Virus record (IMG/VR): IMGVR_UViG_3300045747_000156
Location: 1 to 62,611 of that record
Length of the DNA: 62,611 bases
DNA from: a virus
Reading direction: 5' to 3' (one strand)
Position 1 is the first letter of the stretch; every line of letters starts with the position of its first letter. This document shows positions 2,595 through 41,700 of the stretch, piece after piece. Position numbers and translations under genes: made by a program. Under the pieces are notes generated by a model. That model searched no databases. It worked only from the letters and a program-made list of their open reading frames with translations, and had not been told where the DNA came from.

Positions 2595-3236
2595 ATGTCT
2601 GCTACCATCACCTACTCAGTCCTGCTAGATCAGATACCAGGATATTGCGAGCGCTCATCAGATACCAGGCTCATAGATCAGCTGCCAACTCTGATCATGT
2701 TGGCGGAGAACCGCTTGGCAACAGACATGAAGCAGCAGGGCTTCCAATCTGTTGTCAGTGGCACGTTCACAGTCGGCGCGGCTGGTGCTGTCATCGCTAA
2801 GCCAGCGTTCTGGCGCGAGACCATCAGCTTTAACTTCAAAGACCCTACGGTAGGTTGGTTGCCTATGCGGTTGAGGGCACTTGAGTACCTTAAGAACTTC
2901 TGGCCTCTGCAATCAGCCACTCAGCCACCGCGCTTTTACGCCGACTACAATTTCACAAATTTCTTGGTGGCGCCTTCACCAGACCAAGCCTACGACTTTG
3001 AGCTGGCTTACTACGCACGTTTGGATCCCCTGGGTCCTGACAACCAAACCAACTGGCTCACTGTGAATGCTCCACAGTGCCTACTGTATGCATGCCTTCT
3101 AGAAGCTCAGTTGTGGTTGAAGAACGAGGCCAAGGCCGCATTCTGGAAAGCCCAGTACGATGATCAAAAGGGTGGTCTCATGCAAGAAACTGCTGAGCGC
3201 TTGGGCGATCGCAGCGAAGTTGTGACGAGGGGCTAA
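2595..3236 (+). CDS. Virion structural protein (possible adaptor / tail tubular A-like, by position only)
   Basis: 213 aa with RBS ggaggctact before the ATG. Followed with a 1-nt gap by a 656-aa protein, like the gp11/gp12 pair of podoviruses. No motif-level support. Confidence 0.4.
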   Translation: MSATITYSVLLDQIPGYCERSSDTRLIDQLPTLIMLAENRLATDMKQQGFQSVVSGTFTVGAAGAVIAKPAFWRETISFNFKDPTVGWLPMRLRALEYLKNFWPLQSATQPPRFYADYNFTNFLVAPSPDQAYDFELAYYARLDPLGPDNQTNWLTVNAPQCLLYACLLEAQLWLKNEAKAAFWKAQYDDQKGGLMQETAERLGDRSEVVTRG

Positions 3237-3237
3237 G

Positions 3238-5208
3238 ATGCCAGATCCTATATTCACGCTGAAGTCTCAACCAGGCGTTCGTCGAGACGGCACTGAGCTT
3301 GACTCCCCGTTTTATTCTAATGTTGTGTGGACTAGGTTCCAGCGCCAGAAACCACGTAAAATTGGTGGGTACTCACGCCTGTCTGGCCAGTTGAATGCCC
3401 CGATCAGGTCTGTGTTTGTAGACGCCCGCAACGGTCTTACAACAGCGCACTACTTTGGTAAGTGGGGTGTTCAACGTCAGCTGCTATCAGACCTTTCTGC
3501 AACAGGCTTGGTTGATCGTACTCCGGTGGATTTTGTAGTCAACGACAACTATACGTGGTCTCACTCCACCATGTACTCCTCAACCGGAGGTGCCTACGCC
3601 GCTATTATTGCAGCATCAACACCAGACCTTTTGGACATCACAAATGACGTAGGTGGCAATGTTTATTCTGGAGACGTTTCTGGAACTGCTCCTCTATCCA
3701 AAGTCAGCGATGGCTCCGGACCCATCTTGACATCCGGCGGTGTGTGCGTACTGCAACCGTTTCTAGTTGTGTACGGCAGCAACGGTCTCATCAGCAACTC
3801 CAATGCAAATGACTTCTCAGCAGGTTCTGGCTGGACTACCGGCACAGGGTACGCAAACAGTGCAAATCCAGCAGGCACAAAAATTGTGTACGGGGCTCCG
3901 ATCCGTGGCGGTGGTCAGTCTCCCGCCGGGCTGTTCTGGGCTTTAGACTCCGTAATCAGGATGTCTTTTGTTGGCGGAACTCGCTTGTTTAGCTACGACA
4001 CATTGTCAAACCCTACATCCATCATGGGTAAGAAGACTGTGGTGGAACATGATGGCAAATTCTTCTGGATTGGCACCGACCGCTTCCTGTTTTACAACGG
4101 TATTGTGCAGGAACTTCCCAACCAAATGAACTGCAATGATTTCTTTGAAAACCTGAATTACGCCCACCGCAATAAGGTTTGGGGAACGTGCGTTGCAAGG
4201 TTTGGAGAAATCTGGTGGTTCTACCCTCGTGGCTCAGATACTGAGTGCCACGATGCCATCATCTTTAATTATGCTGAAAACACGTGGTATGAGGCCAAAT
4301 CAAGTCGCAGCGCCGGGCACACGGTCCAGCTGTATCCAAAACCAGTTTGGGTTGGAGATGAGGACTCTCAGTCTACCATCGCGATCCCAGTAGGATTCTC
4401 TACGCCGACAGTGATTGACAGCGGTGCTACTGATAACAAGTTAACATTTGCATCCACAACGTCTCCAGACACCTTTGTCATCGGATACACGGTCAGCGGC
4501 CATCCTAACATTCCACCAAACTGTGTCATCACGTCTTTGACTGGGACTCAAGCGTTTATCTCCCCGAGCACTACTGGCGTTGTTCCAAGCGGTACGTACG
4601 TAACTCTTAGTGCGACAACAACTGGGTTTGTCACCGGTCAAGTTCTCACTGGAGCGTTCTCAGGAGCGAACGGGACTGTTGTAAGGGCCACCGAGAAATC
4701 CATAAACCTGGTCGATGTCAGCGGAGCATTTGTCCCATTTGAAACTCTGACAGGCGGTTCAGGTGCATCGTCCAGAGCCTTAGCCGCAACCTACTCACAG
4801 ACTTTGTCAGGTGTTTATGCTCATGAGACTGGATGGGACAAAGTGGTTGGCCAAGACGTGACAGCCATACCAGCTAGCTTCAAGACATGCAATTTCGGTT
4901 TAGCAGTCGGCGGACCTTTTGACGATGCGCCACAAACCATTGACACGATGACAAGGTTGGTGAACCTCGAGCCAGATCTTGGCCAAATCGGTGACTTGAC
5001 GATGCGCGTCTATGGCAAGAGCTACGCCGCCCAACCGTATAAAGTGTTGTCCACAGACATTGTTACACCTGACACCGTGTTTGTGGCGCCTAGGGTTCAA
5101 GAGCGAATTCTCCAGATTGAATTCGAGTCGAATACCGTGGGTGGATTCTTTCAGCTTGGACAGACGCTGGTAGAGATTGAACCAGGCGATGAGCGTGGGA
5201 ACACGTAA
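3238..5208 (+). CDS. Large virion structural protein (possible nozzle / tail tubular B-like)
   Basis: 656-aa uninterrupted ORF in the late arm, tightly packed with its neighbours. Function inferred from size and position only. Confidence 0.4.
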   Translation: MPDPIFTLKSQPGVRRDGTELDSPFYSNVVWTRFQRQKPRKIGGYSRLSGQLNAPIRSVFVDARNGLTTAHYFGKWGVQRQLLSDLSATGLVDRTPVDFVVNDNYTWSHSTMYSSTGGAYAAIIAASTPDLLDITNDVGGNVYSGDVSGTAPLSKVSDGSGPILTSGGVCVLQPFLVVYGSNGLISNSNANDFSAGSGWTTGTGYANSANPAGTKIVYGAPIRGGGQSPAGLFWALDSVIRMSFVGGTRLFSYDTLSNPTSIMGKKTVVEHDGKFFWIGTDRFLFYNGIVQELPNQMNCNDFFENLNYAHRNKVWGTCVARFGEIWWFYPRGSDTECHDAIIFNYAENTWYEAKSSRSAGHTVQLYPKPVWVGDEDSQSTIAIPVGFSTPTVIDSGATDNKLTFASTTSPDTFVIGYTVSGHPNIPPNCVITSLTGTQAFISPSTTGVVPSGTYVTLSATTTGFVTGQVLTGAFSGANGTVVRATEKSINLVDVSGAFVPFETLTGGSGASSRALAATYSQTLSGVYAHETGWDKVVGQDVTAIPASFKTCNFGLAVGGPFDDAPQTIDTMTRLVNLEPDLGQIGDLTMRVYGKSYAAQPYKVLSTDIVTPDTVFVAPRVQERILQIEFESNTVGGFFQLGQTLVEIEPGDERGNT

Positions 5209-5450
5209 TGGCCCTCCCAAACTTTGTGAGCTTGCCCACTCCGGACATGCTAAAATTCAACGAGTGGGCGCAAATTGCTGTAGAGCAGTTGGTCGATTAC
5301 GGACTCCCAAACCCTCCCGACGAAAGTATGTGGCAATCCTGGGCCACCAGTTTTACAGATGGAACCATGCCTGGTTATCCAGCTCCAAGTCCGATAGGAT
5401 TTAGTTGCTGGCAAGATTGGGCACACGCCGTTATAGGCACAATTTCGTGA
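5208..5450 (+). CDS. Hypothetical small virion-module protein
   Basis: 80 aa. TAATG overlap with the upstream stop. Confidence 0.5.
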   Translation: MALPNFVSLPTPDMLKFNEWAQIAVEQLVDYGLPNPPDESMWQSWATSFTDGTMPGYPAPSPIGFSCWQDWAHAVIGTIS

Positions 5451-8951: not shown

Positions 8952-11273
8952 ATGACAGACGTAGCCCTGAGATTGGAGGACCTGGCTCCAGAAGACAGGA
9001 CTTCACTGCCGTACAACCACCCACTGCTAGATGACTACGCGGTGCGCATGGCCAAAGAGCACGGTATTGACCCAAGCGTGGTATTGGCCATCAAGAACGC
9101 CGGCGAACGCTCTGGATCCAAGTCCGTGAGTTCTGCCAAAGCGCGCGGTGTCATGCAGACGATCCCGTCGACTCAGAAGGAGATGGGAGTCGAAGACCCC
9201 ACAGATCCTATGCAATCCATCATGGGTGGCGCTAAGTACTTGGCTCAAATCTCCAAGAAGCTCGGCACCACAGACCCTATGGTCATCGCAGCCGCGTACC
9301 ATGCAGGACCATCTTCTAAGCCTGCAACCGGCAATTTCGACGGTTCCCCGGTGACCAAGGCTTACGCTCAGCGCGTCTCTTCTCATGTTAGCCGCAATCC
9401 TTATAAGGACGCGGCTCCTAGCTCATCTCAGGTCTCCTCTGATGTTCCTACCTTGCCTCCTGGGGTCAGTTTAGACGACCTTACCGACGACGACAAGGCT
9501 GCTTTCTTGGCCTCTGCCCGTAAAAAGGATCCCATGCTGGACCCCACAAGCGGCAGCAGCTTTGGCCAGAACGCTCTTGAAGGCGTTGGCAAGTTCTTCT
9601 CCGACACCGGGTCTGGCATCCGTCAGATTGCAGCCAACGTTGCAAACCCAATAACGCAGGCTCTTAGCGGCAAGGACATACTTCCACAAGATTACGAAGG
9701 CGAACGTGAGCGCAAGATCCTTGATGCTCCTCTGATGGACACTGTTGGCGGTAACGTCGGATACGTCGGTGCCGGTGCTGCATCACTTGCAATACCAGGT
9801 GGCGTAGTATCCAAGTTTGCCGGAGCCGGTGCCGCACCGATTGCATCGGCCATGACCAATCCGATAGCGCGAGCCGCGGCCGCTAGGTATTTGCCCGTGG
9901 CTGCGACGGCCGGTGCTTTGTCTACGCTGACTCCAACCACGGCACCTGGTGAACGTGCCACCAATGCTGCTGTGAGCGCTGCTCTTGGGCCTGTCATGGA
10001 TAAAGGCGGTGAATTGATTGGACGCGTTGCGCGCCCAGCTATCAACTGGCTTGGTGACCGTGCTAACCTGGGTCCTCTGCTCCGTAAGAGCTTCAACGCA
10101 ACTGCAACACCGACCGAGCGCCAAGCCGTTGCTCGCGCAGTCATTGAGGACGTTCCAGTATATCCACAGCAGTTGGATAACCCAGGCTCGACCCTGCCTA
10201 AGGGCAAGGCTGATGCTCAGTCAGAAGCTCTGACACGGGCAATGAACTCTACTCATGGATCGTCGTCCAGCGATATTCCTGGTGCTTTGGCAGATAGCCG
10301 CCAGCGCTTAAGTGATGTATATGACTCCATCCTCAACGGCCGCGTCATTCATCTGAATACTCAATCAGGTCCTGCACCTGCCAACGGCATTACGTCCAAC
10401 GGACCAGCATCCCCAAGTAACTTCGTGCAGGGTCTCCAAGACATTCGCAGAAACTATCTTGGCGCTAAGCCGATGAGCACGCCAGACACTGAGTTGCTGA
10501 ACACTATCGACATGGCTATTGCTCATGCTAACAACAGCGGGACATTGACAGGTCGTCAATTCCAGAATTACCTACGGGACTATGCCGCTGGCGCGTCGCG
10601 TGCTCGCAAGTCTGGCATCAGCAACAACGTCATGACTGGTGCACCCGACCACGAGGCGGCTGATGCCTATCATCAACTGATCGGAGCCCTGGAAAACCAG
10701 GCTATGCCTTCCATCCCACAGTGGCAGCAACACGCTTTCCGCCAAGCCAACCGTCAGTTCCGCAACATGAAGACGTTAGAAGGTTTGGCACCTGCTGACA
10801 TCAGCGCAGACTTCAACCCAACGACTGTTGCCCGTAAGCTGCAGCGCACTCCAGGCATGACGTTTGATCAAGGCGATCCAACACTACAGGACCTCGCTAG
10901 GTTCGGTGCAACGTTCATGGGAATGGACGCCAACACCGGCAAACAGAGTCTGTGGCAGCAAGGTAAGAAGTTCGCCAAGACAGCGGCTCCGTACATTGCC
11001 ACGGGCTTAGGTGAAGGTGCTATCATCGCATCTGGCCAAGGTCACAACGAGGATGATGGCGTCCTGACAAAGGTTGCCAAGGCCTCGGTCCTGCCCCTAG
11101 CTGTCATGGGTGCCGCAGCAGCAGGCCGCGGGTCACTCAACAAGCGCATAGGACTCAGTCAATTGAACGAGCCTCGCGGTGCTCTGGCAGACTTGACTAG
11201 AATTCTGCAGACATCCCCAGGTGTAGCAGCGGCTATAGCCCAGCAACGTGACATGGGAGACCGCGAGCAATGA
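8952..11273 (+). CDS. Internal virion protein with N-terminal lytic transglycosylase (SLT) domain
   Basis: AIKNAGERSGS...ARGVMQTIPSTQKEMGV...GGAKYLAQISKKLG...AAAYHAGP matches the SLT motif order (E-S, GLMQ, AYNAGP). Start MTDVAL at 8952 with agga 5 nt upstream. Confidence 0.7.
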   Translation: MTDVALRLEDLAPEDRTSLPYNHPLLDDYAVRMAKEHGIDPSVVLAIKNAGERSGSKSVSSAKARGVMQTIPSTQKEMGVEDPTDPMQSIMGGAKYLAQISKKLGTTDPMVIAAAYHAGPSSKPATGNFDGSPVTKAYAQRVSSHVSRNPYKDAAPSSSQVSSDVPTLPPGVSLDDLTDDDKAAFLASARKKDPMLDPTSGSSFGQNALEGVGKFFSDTGSGIRQIAANVANPITQALSGKDILPQDYEGERERKILDAPLMDTVGGNVGYVGAGAASLAIPGGVVSKFAGAGAAPIASAMTNPIARAAAARYLPVAATAGALSTLTPTTAPGERATNAAVSAALGPVMDKGGELIGRVARPAINWLGDRANLGPLLRKSFNATATPTERQAVARAVIEDVPVYPQQLDNPGSTLPKGKADAQSEALTRAMNSTHGSSSSDIPGALADSRQRLSDVYDSILNGRVIHLNTQSGPAPANGITSNGPASPSNFVQGLQDIRRNYLGAKPMSTPDTELLNTIDMAIAHANNSGTLTGRQFQNYLRDYAAGASRARKSGISNNVMTGAPDHEAADAYHQLIGALENQAMPSIPQWQQHAFRQANRQFRNMKTLEGLAPADISADFNPTTVARKLQRTPGMTFDQGDPTLQDLARFGATFMGMDANTGKQSLWQQGKKFAKTAAPYIATGLGEGAIIASGQGHNEDDGVLTKVAKASVLPLAVMGAAAAGRGSLNKRIGLSQLNEPRGALADLTRILQTSPGVAAAIAQQRDMGDREQ

Positions 11274-12457
11274 GCAAGACCACTTTATTCAAGAATTTAG
11301 CCGGTGCTTTGTCACGGGCCTATGAAGATGTCGGCAGCAAGTGGGGCGGCAACCACGAAGTGCTATTTGACCGCCTAGGCTCCTTCTACAAAGGGCTGAC
11401 ACATGACCCTGAGTACTTTGCTACTAGCAAGGTGGTCCCTCAATCTGGTGATGACGTGCGCATCATGCGCGAACTTGAGCGGAAGCACGGACTTGGACAG
11501 GGAGATCTCCGCCTAGAATATGATGGTGGTTTACTACATCGACCATCAGGAGCCTCCATAGGAAACACTGGAGAGACACCGAACGAGATCAGATCCTACA
11601 TCTCAAAGAACGCACCTCCACCGTGGGGATACCTATCCCGCGAAGAGAAGCTGAAGTTCTCAGAAGCCGGTCGCTTAAACCCGGAATTGCCATTCTGGGA
11701 AATGGACATGATGGGAGCAGACAAAGGTTCAGGCACCGCTAAAACGCTGTATCCATTGTTTACTGATTGGATCATGGCCCATCCAGGAACCGGTGCGCGC
11801 ACTGTAGGCTTAACTGAGGCCAATGCTCAAAAGCGTGGCGTGTATCAGGCACAGGCTCTTGAGAAGTACGGTCCCGCGATGCTCAATAGAATCCAGAATG
11901 ATGCGGCTCAGCTGGACAACAGCTGGGGAACATCTGGCAACCACGCGACCATGCTTGGGATGGATACTCAGGGTCAGATAGGGGCCTACAATGCTCTTCT
12001 AGCTCAGCGCACCAATGAGAAACTACGTGACCTTCTGAAGCTGGGTAAGGAAGAGCACGGTACGTTGGACTTCAGCAAGGCCATGGAAGCCGAGATGCCA
12101 GAAGACATGCGATCGATGAATGAAAACTCTTTGCTGCGCCATGAGCTTTTAACCAAAGCCTTAGGCCGAGCTAGAATGTTTGGGCTTGACAAGCCGTCGG
12201 TCAACATGGATTTCCCGGCCGCTCAATCTATCATCAACGATCTGTCCAAGGGAATCTCCCAACCCATACCAGTGGGCCAGGATTCTCTGCGCCGTGCTGC
12301 TATCACTAACAGCTACGTGCAGGATCCTGGATTAGACATGGGAGACCTCATGGGAACTCCAATAGTCAAAGCACTTGCTCGCGCTAAAGGAGGTTCCGTG
12401 ACGACTCACCATACACACGCCGGGCCGTTGACACAGTGCTCGTGTGGAGCAAAATAG
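11270..12457 (+). CDS. Hypothetical late protein (last gene of the plus arm; ARAKGGSV motif near the C-terminus)
   Basis: 395 aa. ATGA overlap with the upstream gene. The 3' end overlaps the convergent minus-strand gene by 74 nt. Confidence 0.5.
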   Translation: MSKTTLFKNLAGALSRAYEDVGSKWGGNHEVLFDRLGSFYKGLTHDPEYFATSKVVPQSGDDVRIMRELERKHGLGQGDLRLEYDGGLLHRPSGASIGNTGETPNEIRSYISKNAPPPWGYLSREEKLKFSEAGRLNPELPFWEMDMMGADKGSGTAKTLYPLFTDWIMAHPGTGARTVGLTEANAQKRGVYQAQALEKYGPAMLNRIQNDAAQLDNSWGTSGNHATMLGMDTQGQIGAYNALLAQRTNEKLRDLLKLGKEEHGTLDFSKAMEAEMPEDMRSMNENSLLRHELLTKALGRARMFGLDKPSVNMDFPAAQSIINDLSKGISQPIPVGQDSLRRAAITNSYVQDPGLDMGDLMGTPIVKALARAKGGSVTTHHTHAGPLTQCSCGAK

Positions 12458-13265
12458 TCTTGGTCCCGTTGTAGCCTCCGGCTAGGTTGAAGACGCAAGG
12501 TACTTCGTTGTCGAAGCAGTATTTGAAGATGATCTCATCACGGTACTTCCACTCGTCATCGTTAAGATACCCGGCCATGTACGGGTCATCCTCATGTGAA
12601 TCGGCGCCTGCTTGATAGAGCACCGCGTCCCACTGCTTAAGACCTAGAGCGTGGCGCAGAGCGGCGAAAGACTTTCCTGCGTCACCTCCTGTAGATCCTT
12701 TGTCAAGCGAGCACTGATGCAGCCAATCGCGCCCACCTATTGTGATAAGGTCATCAGTACCGTCACCCCAGTGGCCATCGCCGTCAATGATAAGGACATT
12801 GGCACCGATAATCTTTTTGCGGACGGCGTCAGCAGCTAGTACTAGTCCATTAAAAGTGCAATAACCACCACCGTAAGCATACCCAGAATGATGGAATCCT
12901 GATACTGGAGCAAACACTGGGCTTGGGATACCTGCGTGAGCTGCTGCCAATGCTGTAATAGCCGCGTCGCGCATGATGACGCATGAGTGAGCTGAGTGGT
13001 CGTTGACCTTCGGATTGTCGATTCCATAACCATTGGGCTTAGTCCCGAGAAACACGTCGTGAACATAGCTTGAATCATGGATCTCCATCAGGTCTAAAAT
13101 TGCTTGATCTTCAGCGTATTTGGACGTCAGGATGATGTCCGATACAATATTGCGTGTGACATCGAAGACGGCCTTACCTTTTGATAAGTTAGGCGCGCCT
13201 TCGACTGGTGATGGTGGGTTATAAATGATCATGCATTGATTATAATGCACTTCCATCCGCTGCAA
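12384..13265 (-). CDS. HDAC / AcuC / acetylpolyamine-amidohydrolase family Zn-dependent deacetylase
   Basis: All family signatures occur in order: SGFHHSG (His-His), GYCTFNG, IIDGDGHWGDGT (Asp/His Zn ligands), YQAGADSHEDDP (Asp ligand), LAGGYN (catalytic Tyr). The start may be the internal Met at 13232 (MIIYNPP). Confidence 0.75.
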   Translation of the reverse strand: MQRMEVHYNQCMIIYNPPSPVEGAPNLSKGKAVFDVTRNIVSDIILTSKYAEDQAILDLMEIHDSSYVHDVFLGTKPNGYGIDNPKVNDHSAHSCVIMRDAAITALAAAHAGIPSPVFAPVSGFHHSGYAYGGGYCTFNGLVLAADAVRKKIIGANVLIIDGDGHWGDGTDDLITIGGRDWLHQCSLDKGSTGGDAGKSFAALRHALGLKQWDAVLYQAGADSHEDDPYMAGYLNDDEWKYRDEIIFKYCFDNEVPCVFNLAGGYNGTKTILLHTSTVSTARRVYGESSRNLL

Positions 13266-13734
13266 ATGTGTATTTGAAATCCAATTTCATCCACTTGCGG
13301 CCTGAGCTCTCCCACAGAGCCCTGGCTTCGGAGTGAGGATATTCCTCTAAGAACATGATCGTTTGGCACGATGTGTTCAGCAGCAGTTTAGTACACGTCA
13401 TGCAAGGGCTTGCTGTCACGTACGCGGTGTCTATGGAATAGACGTCTTTACACTGAAGCAGAGCATTCTGCTCGGCGTGTATCGATTGGCACCCGTCAAG
13501 GTTCGCACCACTAGGAGAGTGAGCCCCGGAGCAGGCGTGCGGAAACCCTATTGGATGAAACATGTCATGATGGTTGCAGTGAGGCTGCCCAGAAGCGACC
13601 CCATTGTAGCCGGTAGCAAGCACGTGGCCGCGACCGTTTACCAACACTGCACCAACCTTGCGGCGGATGCAGGTGGCGCGCTGGGCTGTCACCACCGCCA
13701 TGGCCATTGCCCATGAGTGGCGATCAGGCCGCAT
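13240..13734 (-). CDS. dCMP (deoxycytidylate) deaminase
   Basis: HAEQNAL and PCMTCTKLL zinc motifs. N-terminus RHSWAMAMAVVTAQRATCIRRKVGAVLV is typical of ComEB/dCMP deaminases. Start chosen at Met 13734. Confidence 0.85.
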   Translation of the reverse strand: MRPDRHSWAMAMAVVTAQRATCIRRKVGAVLVNGRGHVLATGYNGVASGQPHCNHHDMFHPIGFPHACSGAHSPSGANLDGCQSIHAEQNALLQCKDVYSIDTAYVTASPCMTCTKLLLNTSCQTIMFLEEYPHSEARALWESSGRKWMKLDFKYTFAADGSAL

Positions 13735-14539
13735 CCGTAGCTCCAACACCGGTTGCTTCCCACCACCGATACGCGTCACCAGGACTGGATTCACGTAGGA
13801 GTTTAAGACGCCTCATCAAGGCTTCCTCGTCGGTATAGAGGTGACTAGGAGTCAATGCTATGCGAGGCATGAGCCGGCCATCGGTCTCACTCAGTAGGGT
13901 CTTGGCCTCTTTCCAATTCTTGTCATACAGATGGCAAGAAGCCGCGGTCAAGAACAATGTTCCTGGTTGCACTGCCCGCTCATGCTTCTGCAAAAGGCGT
14001 GCACAGATCAAGTGGGCCAGCATGCTGAAGTTAAACACGTCGTACGGAAGACCGAGCCAAACGTCAGACGAACGCATGAACACGTGCATGTTCAGCTTGC
14101 CATCACGCATCGACGCGAAGATCGACACGGTGCACGGCACGTCCTTTGTCTGAGGTGGATTCTCACGCCAAATTGTCAATCCAGCCTGGCGAGTATCTGG
14201 ATCTTCGTGCAACTTTCGCACCACGTAGTCCAGTTGCCCGATAACCTTTGGGCCGTAGGCGCCAAAGAACGTCGTGCCGTCGTCACTGAAGTTGGCGATA
14301 TGCTTGTTCCAAGGACTGATGCCCGCAACGGTGTCGTCACCGCTGAGAATCCAGTAGGCTTCAGCTGCCAAGAACCGGTAACTGAGTTTGCGCTCGCGGA
14401 TAGTCAAGACTGGGTGCCTCATGTCCACAATGGTCGTGTGTTGAGGTACCTCCAGGGTGTCGTGGTTTCGCGGACTCACCAACGTCCCATGCATGAACAA
14501 CTCAGACAGCGTATTCAACCAAGCTATATTCATGTTCAT
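13724..14539 (-). CDS. Thymidylate-synthase-family pyrimidine C5 transferase; Asp at the base-specificity position predicts dCMP hydroxymethylase or dCMP methylase
   Basis: Gapless match from the catalytic Cys: VPCTVSIFASMRDGKLNMHVFMRSSDVWLGLPYD versus E. coli ThyA [34 protein letters not shown]. Cys136 codon at 14132-14134; Asp167 codon GAC at 14039-14041, where ThyA has Asn177 and T4 gp42 has Asp179. Confidence 0.75.
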   Translation of the reverse strand: MNMNIAWLNTLSELFMHGTLVSPRNHDTLEVPQHTTIVDMRHPVLTIRERKLSYRFLAAEAYWILSGDDTVAGISPWNKHIANFSDDGTTFFGAYGPKVIGQLDYVVRKLHEDPDTRQAGLTIWRENPPQTKDVPCTVSIFASMRDGKLNMHVFMRSSDVWLGLPYDVFNFSMLAHLICARLLQKHERAVQPGTLFLTAASCHLYDKNWKEAKTLLSETDGRLMPRIALTPSHLYTDEEALMRRLKLLRESSPGDAYRWWEATGVGATDAA

Positions 14540-14913
14540 GCTTTGCTCCTTGTATCCGCCAAGAAGAAGCCTGCGTAGTTGATGATGTCCAACGCGGTAT
14601 CGTTCAGCCCTTCGAAGTTGACGTCCTTGCCCTCAGCAACCTTGCGGGTGATCGACACAAAGCGCTCAGACTTCGTATGGAGCATTTGAGCATAGCTCAC
14701 TGCACCAAATGGGAAGTAGCCTGTGCGGTCAATCGTGTGCAGGTTCTGAGACGCACCATGGTTGTAATCGGCAGACTTCTTTGCGCACAGCAGAGCCGCG
14801 TCAGCGAGAGCGCCTGGATGGCCACCACGAATCGAGAGCTCTTGGAGCATCTCGACAGTGGAAAGCCTAGATGCGGCGGTCGGTGCCGCCACTATAGATT
14901 TAGGCGTGGCCAT
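14536..14913 (-). CDS. DUF1599-like (nucleotide-modification-associated, all-alpha) protein
   Basis: Pattern KSADYNHGAS...GAVSYAQMLHTKSERFVSI...LNDTALDIINYAGFF resembles DUF1599 as I recall it. ATGA/TAATG coupling to both neighbours. Confidence 0.5.
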   Translation of the reverse strand: MATPKSIVAAPTAASRLSTVEMLQELSIRGGHPGALADAALLCAKKSADYNHGASQNLHTIDRTGYFPFGAVSYAQMLHTKSERFVSITRKVAEGKDVNFEGLNDTALDIINYAGFFLADTRSKA

Positions 14914-15344
14914 TATTGATCCTTGCAGTGAGCGTTCAGGATTTCATCGGTCTTGGGACCGACCCAGCCCGGAGGCTTAGCGACATCAATGCCGATGTTG
15001 CGGTGCGTACGACCGACAACCTTTGCCATGTTGGCTCGCTGCACATCCATCCAAAGCTCTTCCCATGGGAGGCCCATTTCGATGGCCGTTCCTTTGGCAA
15101 CGTAGACCAGATCAATGAGGGCATCAGCCATCAGAGCGGCATTGTGGCGTTGGAGACCGACTTTGAATTCGTCGAGCTCTTCCTGCATGAAGCGTACGCG
15201 CTCATATCCACGGTCGACAGTGCAAAACATTGCCGATGGGCGTTGGCCCACTGGTTGCTTGAACTTCTCGTAGAAGGCGCGTACGTCTTCCATCTCGTCA
15301 TAGACGAATTTACGTTTGATGAATGAGATGATTGCTTTGATCAT
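14913..15344 (-). CDS. MazG/HisE-like all-alpha NTP pyrophosphohydrolase (candidate dCTPase/dUTPase)
   Basis: EELDEFKVGLQRHNAALMADALIDLVYVAKGTAIEMG fits the EExxE...D..DL.Y metal-binding helices. Start at 15344 overlaps the upstream TGA (ATGA). Confidence 0.65.
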   Translation of the reverse strand: MIKAIISFIKRKFVYDEMEDVRAFYEKFKQPVGQRPSAMFCTVDRGYERVRFMQEELDEFKVGLQRHNAALMADALIDLVYVAKGTAIEMGLPWEELWMDVQRANMAKVVGRTHRNIGIDVAKPPGWVGPKTDEILNAHCKDQ

Positions 15345-16105
15345 GCTGGTTTCCGGCAAATCCACAGGTTGTTACGGGCTTCGTCTGGGTATAGAGGAGC
15401 AAAGATGCAGGAAATCGCATCATTGTCGTAGTACTCAGACAAAGCCTTTTTGACTTCTGCAATGGCTGATTTGTTGGCGCGGTCAGTCTCAGCTTTACCA
15501 ATGTGTTTGATGTCCATGAAGACACCGTAACGCTTCTCAATTTTGAAGCCGGCCTTTTCCGTCGCTTTTTGCAACTCAGGAATTTCATACTCATGGATGT
15601 GGTTTGCGGCATGGCGCACGCCGTCATAGCACGGAGTGGACATCAACATAATGCCGCCTGGTTTCAGAGACGCAAAGCAAGCCTTCAACATCTTTGCACC
15701 GTGCTCTACGCGCATGTGCTCGATCACTTCGTAGTGAACAACAATGTCAAAGCCGCCGGCGTTGTCGCCCTTGAGAAGTTCCTTGTAGCGCTCAACAAAG
15801 TTGAACTCGCCATGGAACTGGAGCTTGGCCGCAGCAGACGGCTTCAGCTTGTTGAGGTCAACACCGGTGTAGTGCAACACATGAGGCGCAGCACCACCGG
15901 TCAGGATCTTGCTCAACGGTTTGTCTTCACCGCAACCGATTTCAAGGACGCGGTCCTTAGTGGTAATGAAGCGGCGGGCAAAGCTCCAGCGAAAAAAGTG
16001 ACCTGAGTAGTCGCGGCCCAAAGTCTTTCCGTGACCGTTGGCGTGGAGTTGGGTCGTGTCGTAGTCGCGATCGTCGCGGTTCTTTTCTTTACGAGTAGTA
16101 GCCAT
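15341..16105 (-). CDS. Class I SAM-dependent methyltransferase (not a recognisable DNA MTase)
   Basis: Motif I VLEIGCGEDKPL, post-I YTGVDLN, FDIVVHYEVIEHM, LKPGGIMLMSTP. No DPPY/NPPY or PCQ motif. Confidence 0.75.
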   Translation of the reverse strand: MATTRKEKNRDDRDYDTTQLHANGHGKTLGRDYSGHFFRWSFARRFITTKDRVLEIGCGEDKPLSKILTGGAAPHVLHYTGVDLNKLKPSAAAKLQFHGEFNFVERYKELLKGDNAGGFDIVVHYEVIEHMRVEHGAKMLKACFASLKPGGIMLMSTPCYDGVRHAANHIHEYEIPELQKATEKAGFKIEKRYGVFMDIKHIGKAETDRANKSAIAEVKKALSEYYDNDAISCIFAPLYPDEARNNLWICRKPA

Positions 16106-16156
16106 GATGTTCTTGGATCCTCAGCAAATTGGTTGACGAAACAGGCTTACGCCCAA

Positions 16157-16762
16157 TTACTTGGCGCCTTTGACGGCCTTGGCAGCAGGAGGGTTCGCGC
16201 CCTTCTTGGTCAAGTCGTTGCGGTACCATGCCACGTAGCTGAACTTTTTGTCGTCCAGACCGTGAGCAGCTTGCACCTTTTCAAAGATCTTCTGATCAGA
16301 CAGATTGCCAGCCATGATGAGGTCTTTGAACATTTGAGCGGCAGACGGACCTTTCTTTTCAGCTTTGGCAGGCTTTTCGGCCGCGACCTTTGGGGTCTTG
16401 ACCGCCTTTGCCGGCTTTTCAGCTGGGACGTCTTTGGTTGCTTTTTCCACTTTGGCAGTGGACGCCTTTTTGGCTGTAGCCATTTCTATTTCCTTTTGGG
16501 ACAGTTTAGTAAGGCGGCCAAGTGCTTCCATGGCCTCCGGTGATGCCCCGACAGTCCGTGCATACTGAGCGTACAGCTGAGCACAACGTTCCACCGGGTA
16601 ATCGTCAAGCGGTTGGTACAGCTCAACGAATGCTTTACTGGGCATGTGTTCGATATTGAAACCGTTCTCAATGCTCAGGGGAATGAATTCTACAGTGGAA
16701 CCGCCACTTAGCGCTAGGCACGTGCGTCGTTGGCGGTCTGCACAAACAGATGGATATGACAT
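16157..16762 (-). CDS. Lys/Ala/Pro-rich (histone H1-like) protein with C-terminal WYRxxLxKKG domain
   Basis: Strong RBS ctgaggatcattaaATG. Central AKKASTAKVEKATKDVPAEKPAKAVKTPKVAAEKPAKAEKK. The C-terminal domain is paralogous to that of 31067..31516. Confidence 0.6.
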   Translation of the reverse strand: MSYPSVCADRQRRTCLALSGGSTVEFIPLSIENGFNIEHMPSKAFVELYQPLDDYPVERCAQLYAQYARTVGASPEAMEALGRLTKLSQKEIEMATAKKASTAKVEKATKDVPAEKPAKAVKTPKVAAEKPAKAEKKGPSAAQMFKDLIMAGNLSDQKIFEKVQAAHGLDDKKFSYVAWYRNDLTKKGANPPAAKAVKGAK

Positions 16763-18313: not shown

Positions 18314-18826
18314 TTATTTCCTTGACAGAAGAACGCCAGCAGAAATTTTTGCTTTTGCTTCTTCAGTATGATGTTTACCAAACATTGGATGTTTGGTTCC
18401 AGTTCTTCCATAGCCTGGCGCGTCTTCTTTGGCCCTGCCGTACATAGGGTTTCCCTTTCCTGACACTCGTTGACTCATCCTCTCCCGTTTTTCAGGAGTC
18501 CATACAGATTTCCAAATCCCCTTCATAGAGGCGTCTAGCTGATTCTCTTTATTTGTTCCCAACCATAAATGATCAGGATTGATGCAACCCTTATTATCAC
18601 ACGTGTGGCAGACAAAAAGCCCGGTTGGGACTTTCCCTACGTGCAATTGGTATGACGCTATGTTAGCTCTTCTATGGTACGAAGCCCGTTGTAAATGCCT
18701 TGACAGCATTCCATATCCGTTCCAGGATACACTGCCAGACCACATCCAGCAACCACCCACAACTTCGTAGTTTGTCAAAAGTTGAAATACCAAGAAGTCG
18801 TTGATGTCATCCTGTGTTCTAGCCAT
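18314..18826 (-). CDS. Free-standing HNH homing endonuclease with NUMOD3-like repeats
   Basis: [28 protein letters not shown] (HNH_3-type) plus GKGNPMYGR and [20 protein letters not shown] (NUMOD3-like). Confidence 0.8.
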
Positions 18827-37454: not shown

Positions 37455-37628
37455 GACACCAAAATGGCAACTGAAGTAGAACTCTTTGAACAGTATGACC
37501 TACCTGGTCGTGAGTCTATCAGAGGACTGATCGACTCCAATGGTAAAGCTCAAATCCAATTAGGAGGACGTCCTGTCGCGTCTTACTCCACAGACGGTAG
37601 TGGCAACGTTACTGGGTTGGCGGGGCCG
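37452..37628 (+). repeat. ~177-bp near-identical 5' module shared by the two tailspike genes (copy A)
   Basis: From taggacaccaaaATGgcaactgaag... to ...actgggttgg. About 7 mismatches versus 60979-61155. Covers the RBS plus about 55 codons. Confidence 0.9.
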
Positions 37629-38699
37629 GGGGGTGGAGTAATTACGGCTAACCAGCCAATCAGGAAAACATATTCCGATGCTGTGTCAGTTCTTGCAGTT
37701 CCTCCGACAATTGCGCAAGTAACTCAAACGGCTACAACTATTGCCAGTGGCGTTCTGTTTTCAGTGCAGAGCGCTGGAGTTTTACGTTCAGACTACTATG
37801 ACTATATTGGTACACCACTTTTCACTTGGTCGGCTGCACCAGCGTTTATGGTTCCAGGCTCTGTAACTGGTTCGTACCTTGGACGAAATTGCATTTATAG
37901 GTTTTGGTCAGACTCTACCGATGTTGAGTTTTACCTTAATAACTTCAATTCACGATTCAATATCAGAGTAGACGGACAGCCAATTCAGTTAACACAGTTC
38001 ACGTTTTCTGCTGCTGGAACTGCTCAACAGGTAAAACTGACTTTCGTAACTGCGCAGCCTCGTTTGTATGAGATTGATGGCTACAACATGCCATTTGCTG
38101 GTGTGTATGTCACCGCAACGGCTAGTGTGTGGGCAGCTAGAAAACAATCGCAGTTAGTTGCTGTAGTAGGAGACTCCTACACTCAAGGCACAGGGTCTGA
38201 TTCACCAGATCAAACATGGTTTGCAACAGCAATGCGAATACTTGGTCATAGATACTTTCCAGAGGGTATAGGGAGCACAGGGTATTTGACAGCATCTCCA
38301 GCAGACCCAACAACGCGTTTGGCTAACTATCTGAATGTACTTTCTGCGCGTCCGGATACGATTATTTTGGCGCTTGGTTACAACGACAGTGCTGGAAGTC
38401 AGTCATCAATTCTTGCATCTGCAACATCTGCAATAACTGCTGCAAAAGCTATTGCATCAAGAGTGTGTGTTCTTGGGCCTTGGACTCCTCTCGGCGCAAC
38501 TGCCAATCTGACATCAACAAAAAACACACTGATTAGTGCGGCTGCAACTGGTGGAGTTCCTTTCATAGATATTGAGAATGTTATCAACTCCGTGAACAAA
38601 ACTGCATATACGGGCGGGGATAACGTTCATCCAGTTGCGGCGGGGCACTATTTCTTAGGGCATGTGATTGCTGAAAAGCTAGCTGTGATAAACCTGTAA
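37464..38699 (+). CDS. Tailspike/receptor-binding protein 1 with C-terminal SGNH (GDSL-like) esterase domain
   Basis: Block I VAVVGDSYTQGTG, block II GSTG, block III LALGYNDS, block V GDNVHPVAAGH. The N-terminal 55 aa are shared with 60991... Confidence 0.75.
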   Translation: MATEVELFEQYDLPGRESIRGLIDSNGKAQIQLGGRPVASYSTDGSGNVTGLAGPGGGVITANQPIRKTYSDAVSVLAVPPTIAQVTQTATTIASGVLFSVQSAGVLRSDYYDYIGTPLFTWSAAPAFMVPGSVTGSYLGRNCIYRFWSDSTDVEFYLNNFNSRFNIRVDGQPIQLTQFTFSAAGTAQQVKLTFVTAQPRLYEIDGYNMPFAGVYVTATASVWAARKQSQLVAVVGDSYTQGTGSDSPDQTWFATAMRILGHRYFPEGIGSTGYLTASPADPTTRLANYLNVLSARPDTIILALGYNDSAGSQSSILASATSAITAAKAIASRVCVLGPWTPLGATANLTSTKNTLISAAATGGVPFIDIENVINSVNKTAYTGGDNVHPVAAGHYFLGHVIAEKLAVINL

Positions 38700-38782: not shown

Positions 38783-41700
38783 ATGGATAAGCGCAACACA
38801 AAGATGCTCCCACGGGCCGAGCACAACGAACTCACTCAGCAGTATCCGAAGCTCAGTGGCTTCTTGCAGGCTGCTCTGCTTGGTGACGCCCCTGACGAAC
38901 TTGGCGGCTCAGTGCTCGATCCGCTGACTGCTGACCGCCAGACTGGAGCACGCGCAGGCTACCCGCTTGGACTTGCTGCCCAAGTGGCTCCCGTGCTTGG
39001 TCCATTGACTAAGTGGGCAGCCTCTGGGTCTGCTGGTGCAAAGCTCGCAGATGCTGTGGGCGAAGTTGGAAAGAGCTACGTGGTGAAGAACAAAGGCGGC
39101 AACTGGGTTGGCGGCCAGGTCGAAGACACACTGAAGCAGCTGAAGCGAGCCGTACGTGATGACGACTACTTGGCAAGGCTAGCAAGAGATGAGCAGCGTG
39201 GTATCATGATGCCAGGCACCCATCAGGAAATTCTTCGCCAAAATGGCGAGGCTAGTGCGCTCAACAACTGGGTTGACAAGCAGCTCACTCGCTACGTCAA
39301 GAACGACATGGCAACGCCTGAAGACCCTATCCGTGCAATGGCTGAGCGTGGGCCAATCCACACCGACCCCGGTCTCGACCTCTACTCGTCAAGGCATCGT
39401 GAACATCGTAACTCTGCCGGCACGGGCCTTGAAGGACTTGGCCAATCAAGGATTGCCAAAGACTGGGAGAACGTAACTGACGGTGCTATCGTGCCGCAGA
39501 CAATTGACGACCTGTGGCCTCAGTTTCCAGAGCTTAAGGCCCAGAATCCATGGATGGAGACGGCTCCTGCCGATACCAAAATCAACTGGGCTAGCGATGG
39601 GGTCCGCACACGCTTAGGCTTTGACCACTTACTTGATGAGTTGCGCAACGCGACCAATCCAGCCTCAGGTCTGCCAGCTCACTTGCAGTGGGATCCAAAG
39701 AACATGGACCGGGTGTCTGTACCTCAAGCTGTGCAGCGTGTTGCTGACATCAACGCTTGGAGAGCTGAGCAGAAAGCGGCTGCTGATGCTGCAAGGGCCA
39801 ACAACGCAGCCACAACGCTTCACAAGGACTACCCAGACCAAGGCTACAAATGGGTACAACTAAAGAAGCCCCAAGCTTCTGCCACTGATACGCTGCCAGA
39901 TGGATACAAACTTGACCAGAACAAAAACGGATTCTTTGTACGTGGTCCTGACAACAAAATGGCCAAGTCAATCTGGAACACACCAGAAGAGGCTGTGTCA
40001 GAGATGCTCGACGCGTCAAACACCTCTAAGCTATCTGACGCTCTCAAGTACGAGGGCGACACTATGGGCCACTGTGTTGGCGGTTACTGCCCAGACGTTA
40101 CATCTGGCCGCAGCAACATCTACAGCCTCCGCAACTCAAAGACCGGTGAGCCTCACATCACGGTTGAGACTCGACCAAGCAAGGTAAGCCGCGAGTACCT
40201 CAACTCTCTTCCAGACCCTGACAATCCTGGCGGCCCTGACTCATTTGGCGTAGCAAACACAATGTATGACTACGTTCATCGCCATCGCAAGGGAAACGGC
40301 GACTTTGACAACTTTGCACTTCAAGCACTGAAGCAGCACGGTCACGACTTGCCTCCTGAAGAGGTCGTGCAGATCAAAGGCAAGGGCAATGCTGCACCTG
40401 CTGACAAATACAAGCCATTTGCTCAGGACTTTGTCAAGTCCGGTAAGTGGGCGCGCGTCGGAGACCTCAGCAACACAGGCTTGGTTGAAGCGCAAGGAAA
40501 ATACTGGACACCGCAGGAACTCAGTGATGCAGTAGGCCCAGTCCCGACACCGCCAGAATACGCAGAAGGAGGCCGTGTGAGCCCAACAGATGGTATCCCA
40601 TACCCGGGAATTGGTAAACGACGCCACAACGATCGTCAAGCAAGTGCCGACATACCGGTACAAGCACTTCGCGGTTGGGCTGCGGGCACGGCCGGACTCC
40701 CCGGAGACCTCGAGGGACTAGTCAGGAGCTTAATTCCTGGTGTCAGCAACACCTCGTTCTGGCCTACGAGTGATTTCTACAAGGAATGGCTCCCCGGCGC
40801 GTCTGAGACCCCTCAGGCGAGGGCTGCCCAAGAGCTAGGGAGCTTCTTCGGAGGAGCTGGCTCCACAAAACTGGCTAAACCGATTGCCTCCACAGGCAAA
40901 GCGGCTGCAAGGTTCGCTGGTGAAGCCATCGATGCTGGCATGCACGGGGAAGGAGCATTGGCTAGGGTCTTAGCGCCTGCAGCTCCGGCCTTTGCCGTGA
41001 AGCCTAAGGGCGGCAATTGGACCGTCGCAAGCGGCCATGCCCCTGAAGACGCCTTGGAATTCCACGACATAGCTGCTCGCAACTCGTCTGAGGCCAACCG
41101 CTGGCGCGACAAGCAGTTGTTGAACTACATGAAGAACCAGATGGGGACAGTTGACGACCCACTACTGAAGCTCGAGCAAGAAGGCCGTCTGCACATGACA
41201 CCTCAGCAGATGATAGAGTCGTCGCGGGAGTTTGGGGTGGCTCCACACCCGCTTCGTGGAACTGAGGAGTTTGGGTTGAGAACTGGTTTAGGTACTGCCG
41301 ATAAGTTCCACTACGAGACTACGGGTAGGTCAACAAGAACGCCGTGGGAGAATCTCTCTGACCAAGCAATCGGCACTCATACGCCAGGCGAAGAAGTCAA
41401 CAACCTTCTGGATTATCACGGCGTCACTGACGGCCCCAACACAATCGGCGAAGGCGTTGAGCACTTGACAAACCAAGGTGGGATCTCAGCGCAGGCGGCA
41501 GAGCTCTTGAAGCGACACTCTTGGCTTGACAAGGCAGATCCAAAAACACCAATCTACGGACTGGGTGAACCACAAGGCCTCGGCTTCCAGCACATGATGG
41601 ACTACCTGGACCAAGCCAACGGGGCAGGTCAAGCTCTTGAGCATCACGGATCCTTAGAGGCCATGCGAGCCGCTGCTCAAGGAGCCGTTCAAAATGCTCC

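Follow-up and report, generated by a model that had tools for sequence, protein, structure and literature searches.

Within the window analyzed here (the whole stretch of viral DNA, 62,611 nucleotides long), five adjacent genes at 13240-16105 make up a widespread and mobile phage cassette, not a one-off arrangement. The cassette probably replaces dC, prior to replication, by 5-hydroxymethyl-dC or by a methylated derivative of it, with a neighboring HDAC-like gene and its partner, p395, belonging to a separate unit. The genes follow each other in the order methyltransferase (MTase), MazG-like pyrophosphatase, either p125 or a kinase, ThyA homologue with Asp in the active site, ThyA(Asp), and dCMP deaminase. 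We saw this cassette in about 280 IMG/VR viral contigs as well as in the published phages Stenotrophomonas AXL3 and Pseudoxanthomonas PW916; the gene order is conserved in AXL3, PW916, MW202621, the distant MW202510 (with an MTase only 33% identical) and at 79 MTase and 80 ThyA loci of IMG/VR. The earlier note on this DNA could not match the combination of genes to any characterized hypermodification system; however, GenBank already contains the cassette with MTase (AXL3, PW916, MW202621 and MW202510), labeled there as thymidylate metabolism or 'pyrimidine hmase'. Furthermore, the triad of PF00303, PF01503 and PF00383 was reported on metagenomic contigs experimentally selected for cytosine modification (PMC8670742).

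Gene packing

The earlier note described a run of six translationally coupled genes, with a deacetylase as the sixth. All six ORFs were recovered on the minus strand at the coordinates given there (12384-16105), densely packed at the end of the replication arm, and Pfam matches for five of the six proteins agree with the earlier domain calls. As read from the sequence, the MTase/MazG and p125/ThyA-like junctions are ATGA, the MazG/p125 junction is TAATG, and the ThyA-like and deaminase genes overlap by 11 nt. The deacetylase start, placed earlier at 13265, needs correcting, as the conserved Met is ATG 13232. Close packing by itself is unremarkable, since phage operons commonly show overlaps of this kind and the same arm has further ones, for example PolA/EndoVII. 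Upstream of the cassette there is a conserved neighbor, p201 (16157-16762, minus strand; AXL3 gp32), with a Lys/Ala/Pro-rich C-terminal half and no Pfam match; it precedes the MTase gene in 75 of 81 loci.

Core enzymes

The gene at 14913-15344 (minus strand) codes for a MazG/PRA-PH-type all-alpha NTP pyrophosphohydrolase (Pfam PRA-PH, 1.3e-13), presumed to be a dCTPase producing dCMP, with dCTP specificity assumed. Next to it, p125 (14536-14913, minus strand; 125 aa) is a helical Nmad1/DUF1599-like protein with nothing above the Pfam threshold. Its earlier designation as 'DUF1599-like' is plausible but weak: DUF1599 ('Nucleotide modification associated domain 1') was matched by 12 of 12 family members tested, always below threshold (best E 0.0019). 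In other phages the two proteins are fused, the N-terminal half of phrog_18404 (264 aa) matching the MazG-like protein and the C-terminal half p125; p125 is a probable partner of the pyrophosphatase. In other cassettes the slot of p125 holds a dNMP-kinase-like gene; the kinase is present at 49 loci and p125 at 25, with zero loci having both, and hhalign detected no similarity of p125 to MazG or to the kinase. The dCMP deaminase (13240-13734, minus strand; PF00383 dCMP_cyt_deam_1, 6.7e-19; phrog_174 dCMP deaminase, 4.7e-38) has both zinc motifs, HAE and PCxxC, and accompanies 78 of the 80 ThyA(Asp) loci.

The ThyA-family enzyme (13724-14539, minus strand; Pfam Thymidylat_synt PF00303, 2.5e-24) bears the signature of a dCMP hydroxymethylase (5hmdCMP synthase). 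We read its active site by the residue rule of PMC13326640: D133, C136, D159 and D167 correspond to L143D, C146, D169 and N177D, the Asp at the Asn177 position being confirmed. This DCDD signature is invariant at 164 related loci; as an internal control, ThyA genes adjoining a 5-hmdU DNA kinase are DCDN, with Asn177 kept. Judging by these residues, the active-site signature of the predicted dCMP hydroxymethylase is complete, from which we infer the activity. The top PDB sequence match is the CMP hydroxymethylase MilA (of mildiomycin synthesis), which has the DVxC and Asp motifs in common with the ThyA-like protein.

In T-even phages dC is replaced by means of T4 gp56 dCTPase, gp42 dCMP hydroxymethylase, cd dCMP deaminase, gp1 dNMP kinase and glucosyltransferases. 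Domain matches and the signature bear out the earlier view of the pyrophosphatase, the hydroxymethylase-type ThyA homologue and the deaminase as a T-even-like cytosine-directed pre-replicative core: the logic and the three (here predicted) core activities are the same, as are Asp177 and the acidic residue 143 of the ThyA homologue. Unlike T-even phages, the window has a pyrophosphatase of PRA-PH/MazG type, an extra Nmad1-like protein, a SAM methyltransferase and an unrelated phage backbone of ~62 kb with an SU10-like adaptor; it also has neither dNMP kinase nor glycosyltransferase. Pfam scans of the larger ORFs in both arms of the window gave no kinase or glycosyltransferase, and the relatives' kinases, used as tblastn queries, matched nowhere in the window; within the reach of these methods the earlier statement that the genome has neither is supported.

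The layout of AXL3 gp27-gp31, also that of PW916 and MW202621, is MTase, NTP-PPase, X, ThyA(Asp) and dCMP deaminase. These phages and the window have the entire replication module in common, with identities of 72-80% for MTase (73% in AXL3), 54-63% for the ThyA-like protein and 66-67% for PolA (66% in AXL3). On the other hand, slot X is a ~300-aa kinase-like protein there and p125 here, and the three phages are siphoviruses with other structural modules, having neither the HDAC-like gene nor p395.

Proposed pathway

The MazG-like pyrophosphatase, probably with the Nmad1-like p125, would convert dCTP to dCMP, which the ThyA homologue, by its signature, would hydroxymethylate at C5. If T4 biology is a guide, the deaminase would route a part of dCMP to dUMP, to be turned into dTMP by a host enzyme. 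As the window has no kinase, the modified dNMP would have to be phosphorylated by a host kinase or by an unrecognized function. Finally, the SAM MTase, dependent on the cassette product, would most likely methylate hydroxymethyl-cytosine, either at the nucleotide stage or once in DNA, with the hydroxyl or N4 as candidate sites; such a tailoring role, similar to that of carbamoyltransferases and glycosyltransferases capping 5hmC, is suggested because the genetic dependence on the cassette is one-way.

T4 requires its own kinase for hmdCMP. The missing recognizable dNMP kinase counts against the proposal, as it leaves the route to the modified triphosphate unexplained.

Methyltransferase

The gene at 15341-16105 (minus strand) encodes a small-molecule-type class I SAM-dependent methyltransferase (Pfam Methyltransf_23, 2.6e-14; also Methyltransf_12/11/25) with no match to a DNA-MTase family. 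Foldseek, run on the AF2 model (pLDDT 78), retrieved generic small-molecule MTases, FPP-MT, RebM, CmoM and PEAMT, with TM of 0.5-0.6. Homologues in AXL3, PW916 and IMG/VR contigs are 68-89% identical. The earlier note had tied this MTase to the pathway and, indeed, all MTase loci of sufficient length have ThyA(Asp) downstream. The MTase is present in 56 of 69 cassettes, with 13 (~19%) doing without; being bound to the cassette yet missing from some copies, it behaves as an optional tailoring enzyme would, and one-way dependence is what one expects of an enzyme tailoring the cassette product.

Still, the MTase could act outside DNA and merely travel with the cassette, as the fold matches are generic and do not identify the substrate. 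Linked by position only, it would have a target such as RNA, a protein or a metabolite, leaving plain 5hmC in the DNA. A fold resembling those of UbiG, phosphoethanolamine, terpene and tRNA-side-chain MTases, with no DNA-MTase features, would suit this role, as would the 13 cassettes without MTase; however, all family members, whether 68-89% identical and in unrelated backbones or the 33% identical homologue of MW202510, are situated directly upstream of the same cassette. We consider a purely positional link rather unlikely.

Small-molecule biosynthesis offers a precedent for the pairing of the two enzymes: the bacimethrin pathway likewise combines a CMP hydroxymethylase with a SAM methyltransferase. 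Unlike the phage cassette, the MilA and bacimethrin enzymes work on ribonucleotides, in antibiotic synthesis by bacteria. Among phages, the MetaGPA 5-carbamoyloxymethylcytosine cassette likewise has a ThyA homologue, PRA-PH, dCMP deaminase and one tailoring enzyme; there a carbamoyltransferase fills this place, its action on the hydroxyl of 5hmC in DNA being proven (PMC8670742), whereas the predicted tailoring enzyme here is a SAM methyltransferase.

Restriction pattern and the proposed modified base

Among 37 enzymes only AATT and TTAA cutters work on AXL3 DNA, which is refractory to each tested enzyme with G/C in its site, including KpnI and Eam1105I, an AhdI isoschizomer (PMC7504290). The pattern would fit guanine modification too. 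Could the ThyA homologue be a dCMP methylase, with 5-methylcytosine taking the place of all C as in XP12? An Asp in place of Asn177 suits any dCMP-specific ThyA homologue, and Xp12 is likewise heavily restriction-resistant; however, KpnI and AhdI cut Xp12 5mC DNA completely, while both are blocked on T4gt 5hmC DNA (PMC7653180), as KpnI and Eam1105I are on AXL3 DNA. In addition, Asp at the Leu143 position correlates with hydroxymethyl, not methyl, products (PMC13326640). We regard 5mC replacement as highly improbable and retain 5-hydroxymethyl-dC or its methylated derivative.

HDAC-like gene and p395

The HDAC-family Zn-dependent deacylase (12384-13232, minus strand; ~282 aa; PF00850 Hist_deacetyl, 4.6e-21) has a start conserved among 32 homologues, located 7 nt past the deaminase stop; the JGI gene call has an alternative start, ATG 13256, with a 17-nt overlap, and TTG 13265 gives only the longest ORF. 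These homologues all keep the catalytic His-His and Tyr as well as the Asp/His/Asp Zn ligands, by which the active site of the predicted enzyme is intact. Fold family and full catalytic set are those of bacterial class IV/HDAC11-like deacylases and acetylpolyamine amidohydrolases (PF00850); unlike them, the protein is shorter (about 282 aa), phage-encoded and paired with p395. Its kinship to solved structures is at most distant (best E 3e-12).

The constant neighbor, p395 (11270-12457, plus strand), is convergent with the HDAC-like gene, the 3' ends overlapping by 74 nt. Neighbor-protein clustering finds a p395 homologue adjoining the HDAC-like gene at 51 of the 67 loci (tblastn at 43 of 80), and the pairing persists across an inversion. 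The p395 family is small (73 clusters among 1.84 billion proteins), with no match in Pfam, PHROG, NCBIfam, PDB or BFVD.

We found the HDAC-like gene in 203 IMG/VR viral contigs, next to C, T or PurZ-type cassettes or with no cassette. Thymidine hypermodification clusters (5-hmdU DNA kinase / amino acid:DNA transferase) and PurZ-type aminoadenine clusters, in phages related to that of the window or similarly organized, occupy the same slot upstream of it; unlike the cassette here, they modify other bases with other enzymes, and none of their genes was found in the window. The earlier assignment of the deacetylase to the same pathway fails on these data, the gene being missing from 76 of 79 MTase-bearing loci. 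In that proposal all six genes formed one pathway, with MTase and deacetylase both modifying the C5 adduct into a novel hydroxymethyl derivative, methylated or deacylated. The genes are contiguous and closely packed, and the HDAC-like gene comes directly after the deaminase in the lineage of the window itself; however, only 3 of 79 MTase loci carry it, AXL3, PW916 and MW202621 have the cassette without it, its slot is the same beside 5-hmdU-kinase/ADDT and PurZ/MazZ/HD genes, which make bases of unrelated chemistry, it is constantly partnered by p395, and its GC3 (0.53) is unlike that of the cassette genes (0.61-0.64). A single six-gene pathway is thus very doubtful. The earlier note would have abandoned its scheme had MTase and deacetylase both proved dispensable and unlinked in related phages; by this standard the deacetylase gene is unlinked, and the MTase is dispensed with in a minority of relatives (13 of 69).

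The HDAC-like gene and p395 are a separate two-gene unit outside the C-modification pathway, which in many phages closes the nucleotide-metabolism module. Since the unit occurs whatever base the phage modifies, the deacylase would not have the C5 adduct as its substrate but most likely acetylpolyamine or an acetylated lysine of a protein. As the gene always directly follows the nucleotide cassette in C, T and PurZ-type lineages, it may conceivably serve nucleotide or DNA metabolism more generally.

Thymidylate supply and thymine analogues

The cassette would serve ordinary thymidylate supply if the deaminase produced dUMP and the ThyA-like enzyme dTMP, as annotated in AXL3, where the GenBank labels are 'thymidylate synthase' and 'thymidylate kinase'; the PF00303 match agrees with such labels. 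However, Asp is present at both the Asn177 and Leu143 positions in 164 of 164 loci, the ThyA-like protein scores 61 bits with the NCBIfam thymidylate synthase models against a cut-off of 327 bits, AXL3 also encodes ThyX, and enzymes with G/C in the site fail on AXL3 DNA; this reading is hardly tenable.

Certain dCMP deaminases take 5-substituted dCMP, and here the deaminase and ThyA-like genes overlap; one could speculate that the deaminase acts after the hydroxymethylase, on 5hmdCMP to give 5hmdUMP, the modified base being a thymine analogue. We give this almost no credence, as AXL3 DNA is cut at pure A/T sites only with every G/C-containing site blocked, SP8 5hmdU DNA resists just about 8% of enzymes (PMC7653180), and T-modifying lineages instead pair an Asn177 ThyA with a 5-hmdU DNA kinase.

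Partition of the gene block

The window is a complete JGI contig of 62,611 bp. Six minus-strand ORFs, read in the earlier note as one translationally coupled operon, were confirmed in the sequence at the coordinates proposed for them, and the domain identities of five were borne out by clear Pfam matches: Methyltransf_23 (15341-16105), PRA-PH/MazG-like (14913-15344), Thymidylat_synt (13724-14539), dCMP_cyt_deam_1 (13240-13734) and Hist_deacetyl (12384-13265); the remaining ORF, p125, occupies 14536-14913. The proposed chain of overlapping junctions holds for the first four (ATGA, TAATG, ATGA and an 11-nt overlap) but not for the deacetylase: comparison with homologues puts its conserved Met at ATG 13232, 7 nt beyond the deaminase stop (the JGI gene call starts at 13256). 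Phage operons are normally tightly packed, and packing is by itself no evidence.

Intrinsic terminators on the coding strand within the block did not exceed chance expectation, nor did anything in a promoter and terminator scan of the region. A promoter-like TTTGCA-16 nt-TATAAT (10 of 12 matches) is located at 13239-13266 (-), overlapping the stop codon of the deaminase gene, and 7 nt separate its end from the conserved start of the HDAC-like gene; such sites are regionally no more frequent than expected by chance. A near-leaderless separate transcript of the HDAC-like gene could start from it. A megablast search of the region against GenBank phages gave no match.

The finding is real, but it has to be re-cut into a five-gene cassette (methyltransferase to deaminase) and a separate two-gene unit made of the HDAC-like gene and its convergent neighbor p395 (11270-12457, +).

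The ThyA-like enzyme

The ThyA-like protein matches PF00303 with 86 bits (E-value 2.5e-24; cut-off 24.3), and its best sequence match among solved structures is the CMP hydroxymethylase MilA. The diagnostic residues of the ThyA family, in E. coli numbering, were summarized in a 2026 paper (PMC13326640): the catalytic residue is Cys146; cytosine specificity comes with Asn177→Asp; Leu143→Asp/Glu correlates, through water access, with a hydroxymethyl product in place of a methyl one; and 5-hydroxy-dCMP synthases of the RB69 gp48 type are marked by Asp169→Asn. In the window's protein the invariant catalytic Cys is C136, in the motif TKDVPCT. D167 (position 177) aligns with the Asn of M. tuberculosis ThyA and with the Asp of both MilA and the L. 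casei N229D mutant; D133 (position 143) stands three residues ahead of the catalytic Cys, as in MilA (DVAC); D159 (position 169), in RSSDVW, is kept as Asp. The same residues at these four positions (Asp143, Cys146, Asp169, Asp177) were seen in all 164 related loci collected, while in sister phages the ThyA homologues that adjoin a 5-hmdU DNA kinase retain Asn177, an internal control. Because of the four signature residues, along with a best score of 61 bits to NCBIfam thymidylate synthase models (cut-offs >300), we predict that the protein is a dCMP hydroxymethylase, i.e. a 5hmdCMP synthase.

Three other activities were considered for this protein. A dCMP 5-methyltransferase of the XP12 type would share the cytosine substrate, but position 143 is Asp and not a hydrophobic residue; it is further disfavored by the resistance of DNA of a relative, Stenotrophomonas phage AXL3, to KpnI and an AhdI isoschizomer, enzymes that cut 5mC DNA. 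A 5-hydroxy-dCMP synthase of the RB69 gp48 type was rejected, as the Asp169 position is still Asp throughout the 164 loci. A canonical thymidylate synthase was dismissed on Asp at both 143 and 177 and on the 61 bits obtained against a cut-off of 327.

Restriction data available for AXL3 bear on the nature of the base. Of 37 enzymes tried, only two, with the sites AATT and TTAA, cut its DNA, and all enzymes with G/C in the site failed, KpnI, Eam1105I and XbaI included (PMC7504290). In a reference survey, Xp12 (5mC) DNA was fully cut by KpnI and AhdI, while T4gt (5hmC) DNA was resistant to both, yet cut by AATT and TTAA enzymes (PMC7653180). Eam1105I being an isoschizomer of AhdI, the AXL3 pattern fits hmC or a bulkier base and not 5mC, since resistance to KpnI and Eam1105I matches T4gt, unlike Xp12. 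Also, PF00303, PF01503 and PF00383 occur together on metagenomic contigs experimentally selected for modified cytosine, where the tailoring enzyme is a carbamoyltransferase shown to act at the 5hmC hydroxyl (PMC8670742).

Distribution of the cassette

By tblastn, the order methyltransferase – NTP-PPase – X – ThyA(Asp) – dCMP deaminase was found in several phages, where ThyA(Asp) denotes a homologue with Asp at position 177 and X a variable gene: Stenotrophomonas phage AXL3, Pseudoxanthomonas phage PW916 and the spring-water phage MW202621. The unrelated podovirus MW202510 has this order too, with a methyltransferase only 33% identical. The cassette is already present, mis-annotated, in published phages. 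The window's DNA polymerase is 66-67% identical to those of AXL3 and PW916, so that the entire replication module is common to the three.

A scan of IMG/VR with the methyltransferase gave 79 loci, and one with the ThyA-like protein matched 283 contigs, the best 80 of which were retained. A ThyA(Asp) gene was present in every methyltransferase locus that reached far enough downstream. In the opposite direction, among those best 80 of 283, the methyltransferase was found in 56 of the 69 ThyA loci whose contigs extended 3.5 kb or more upstream; the remaining 13 had pyrophosphatase – kinase – ThyA – deaminase only. The cassette is conserved, mobile and widespread.

A gene upstream of the cassette, p201 (16157-16762, -), accompanies it in 75 of 81 loci and corresponds to AXL3 gp32; the C-terminal half of its product is Lys/Ala/Pro-rich and histone-H1-like, with no family match. 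In the relative L004 an HNH gene (4812-5321) sits between methyltransferase and pyrophosphatase, interrupting the coupled chain; a different HNH/NUMOD homing-endonuclease gene is located in the window's replication arm (18314-18826, -).

The methyltransferase

The product of 15341-16105 (-) belongs to the class I SAM enzymes and carries an N-terminal extension that is very conserved; its identity remains at 68-89% across differing phage backbones. Its Pfam matches are all generic (Methyltransf_11/12/23/25/31), and the AF2 model (pLDDT 78) gave Foldseek matches only to generic small-molecule, tRNA-side-chain and cap methyltransferases. Neither a DNA-methyltransferase family match nor a target-recognition domain was found by Pfam, Foldseek or family searches. 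A DNA (cytosine or adenine) methyltransferase was rejected on these generic family and small-molecule, tRNA and cap fold matches.

The methyltransferase was never found without the cassette, while the cassette sometimes occurs without it. This one-way dependence fits an accessory enzyme acting on the cassette product. With modest confidence we propose that the enzyme would methylate the hmC nucleotide or hmC within DNA. Alternatively, its target would be something else, and it would simply travel with the cassette. If tailoring of hydroxymethyl-cytosine is indeed its role, phage DNA would have a new natural base, obtained cheaply by capping 5hmC in one step; literature searches returned no report of methoxymethyl-cytosine in phages. 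Methylated hmC would then serve, as glucosylated or carbamoylated hmC does, to evade hmC-dependent restriction; the enzyme would be an added tool for 5hmC chemistry. It would also matter for phage therapy, AXL3 being a candidate against S. maltophilia. AXL3 is in culture and has the cassette, which opens the question to direct testing.

Pyrophosphatase, p125 and the kinase gap

The protein encoded at 14913-15344 (-) is, by Pfam, a PRA-PH/MazG-type NTP-PPase and a presumed dCTPase. For p125 (14536-14913, -) the earlier note had suggested a DUF1599-like protein, a family now named 'Nucleotide modification associated domain 1'. The match recurs in all 12 family members tested, each time below threshold: p125 itself scores 14.1 bits to Nmad1/DUF1599 (PF07659; cut-off 25), and the best E-value among the 12 members is 0.0019. 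In a PHROG family of 264-aa 'hydrolases' the first half matches the MazG-like protein and the second half p125; therefore the two are fused in other phages, and p125 is probably a partner of the pyrophosphatase. Its reading as a diverged MazG domain or as a piece of the relatives' kinase was rejected (hhalign probability <1%), and a profile search of PDB gave no match.

The position held by p125, between the pyrophosphatase and ThyA-like genes, is taken in 49 loci by a ~300-aa kinase-like protein and in 25 by p125, never by both (L090-L168); the AXL3-type kinase in this slot bears a ~130-aa C-terminal extension. The earlier note had seen no dNMP kinase or glycosyltransferase, and indeed Pfam scans of 38 larger ORFs in the window detected none; a Walker-A scan and a tblastn search that used the kinases of relatives gave no kinase in the window either. 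A complete T-even-type hmC system would include a phage dNMP kinase accepting hmdCMP and a DNA glycosyltransferase. A kinase is present in 49 related cassettes; the window's scanned ORFs match no glycosyltransferase family. The main gap of the model concerns p125-type cassettes: the window has no recognizable dNMP kinase to carry the modified monophosphate to the triphosphate. Overall, the five-gene cassette is most likely a variant of the known T-even-type hmC logic with an uncharacterized, perhaps novel, methylation step.

The HDAC-like gene and p395

The HDAC-like protein matches PF00850 with 75.9 bits (cut-off 27.9). Residues H122, H123, D158/D160, H162, D219 and Y262, which make up the His-His dyad, the Asp-His-Asp zinc ligands and the catalytic Tyr, do not vary among 32 homologues. 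For this member of the HDAC/acetylpolyamine amidohydrolase family the candidate substrates are a protein acyl-lysine and an acetylpolyamine. Homologues were found in 203 viral contigs of IMG/VR, but GenBank phages gave just one weak match; literature searches found no report of phage-encoded HDACs.

The earlier assignment of this gene to the cytosine pathway did not hold: it is present at just 3 of the 79 methyltransferase loci, all of the window's own lineage. In close relatives it comes after the cytosine cassette. Sister lineages that share the structural arm have it at the same position, but behind a thymidine-hypermodification cassette (5-hmdU DNA kinase, amino acid:DNA transferase, FAD oxidase, Asn177 ThyA, sometimes GNAT). 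In another 31 loci it is preceded by an aminoadenine-type cluster of PurZ-like, dATP/dGTP-pyrophosphatase and HD genes. In 34 loci there was no cytosine, thymidine or PurZ-type cassette within 10 kb, and several recurrent neighbors in this group resemble, on a by-eye reading, ribonucleotide reductase, ThyX and thymidylate kinase. A single deacylation step could not serve three base modifications of unrelated chemistry; the HDAC-like enzyme is therefore no tailoring enzyme of the C5 adduct but has an accessory role of its own, tied to p395.

A p395 homologue is the most constant neighbor of the HDAC-like gene, adjacent in 51 of 67 loci by clustering of neighbor proteins and in 43 of 80 by tblastn. 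The two genes are co-directional in PurZ-type loci and convergent in the cytosine and thymidine lineages. In each cytosine- or thymidine-type locus examined, six in all, the convergent genes share 25-116 nt at their 3′-ends: 12384-12457 in the window (74 nt), and in relatives L004 8776-8870, L005 8800-8876, L007 8848-8963, L249 8828-8852 and L250 8827-8909; thus early and late transcripts would be mutually antisense there. The C-termini of both proteins are conserved. GC3 is 0.53 for the HDAC-like gene and 0.55 for p395, lower than for the cassette genes (0.61-0.64).

Searches with p395 in Pfam, PHROGs and NCBIfam gave no match, and a Foldseek comparison of its AF2 model with PDB and BFVD brought up nothing significant, as did a profile search of PDB sequences. 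The only structural matches that recur, all very weak, are several to HAT1 acetyltransferases, at probability ∼0.2 or less; reading p395 as a GNAT-type acetyltransferase is a guess. Were p395 an acetyltransferase, the two proteins would make an acetylation/deacetylation pair. A 'polyvalent'-protein domain (sub-threshold LPD37 match in one homologue) was rejected, the family consisting of stand-alone ~350-aa proteins. An invariant loop, D-M-M-x-A-x-x-G-x-G-x-A-K-x-x-Y, follows a predicted strand in p395.

In one thymidine-type relative (L249, 1933-2487) a GNAT acetyltransferase gene lies beside the FAD oxidase gene, and the HDAC-like gene ends the same block. The gene set is that expected for acetylated aminomethyl-uracil, and a link between deacetylase and acetylated base is possible for that lineage only. 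More broadly, the HDAC-like and p395 genes would represent, as predicted from sequence, an unstudied phage pair of a deacylase and p395 in >200 viral contigs.

Apparent exchange of cassettes at one locus

Related contigs of ~50-68 kb carry differing nucleotide-modification cassettes at one locus, between the SNF2 helicase gene and the HDAC-like gene (window 12384-16762 compared with loci L007, L011-L015, L249, L250 and L020-L087). The types are cytosine, thymidine-hypermodification (HMUDK, ADDT, DAO, ± GNAT) and PurZ/MazZ/HD, the last in a group with another gene arrangement. It looks like modular swapping of DNA-modification modules, and the comparative result is that related phages exchange cytosine-, thymidine- and aminoadenine-type cassettes at a single locus.

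One could speculate, tentatively and with the odds against the whole, that the methyltransferase turns 5-hydroxymethyl-cytosine (nucleotide or DNA) into a methylated base new to natural DNA, e.g. 5-methoxymethylcytosine or N4-methyl-5hmC, replacing C completely in widespread phages, cultured AXL3 included, and that, separately, the HDAC-like/p395 pair is a new conserved module preferentially placed beside cassettes for non-canonical nucleotides (cytosine, thymidine and aminoadenine types).

The structural arm (+) encodes, at 2595-3236, 37464-38699, 38783-43891 and 56404-57405, two SU10-adaptor-like proteins, a 411-aa protein with a GDSL-esterase domain and a 1702-aa PcfJ-like protein; this gene content points to an SU10-like podovirus whose internal or ejected proteins are large.
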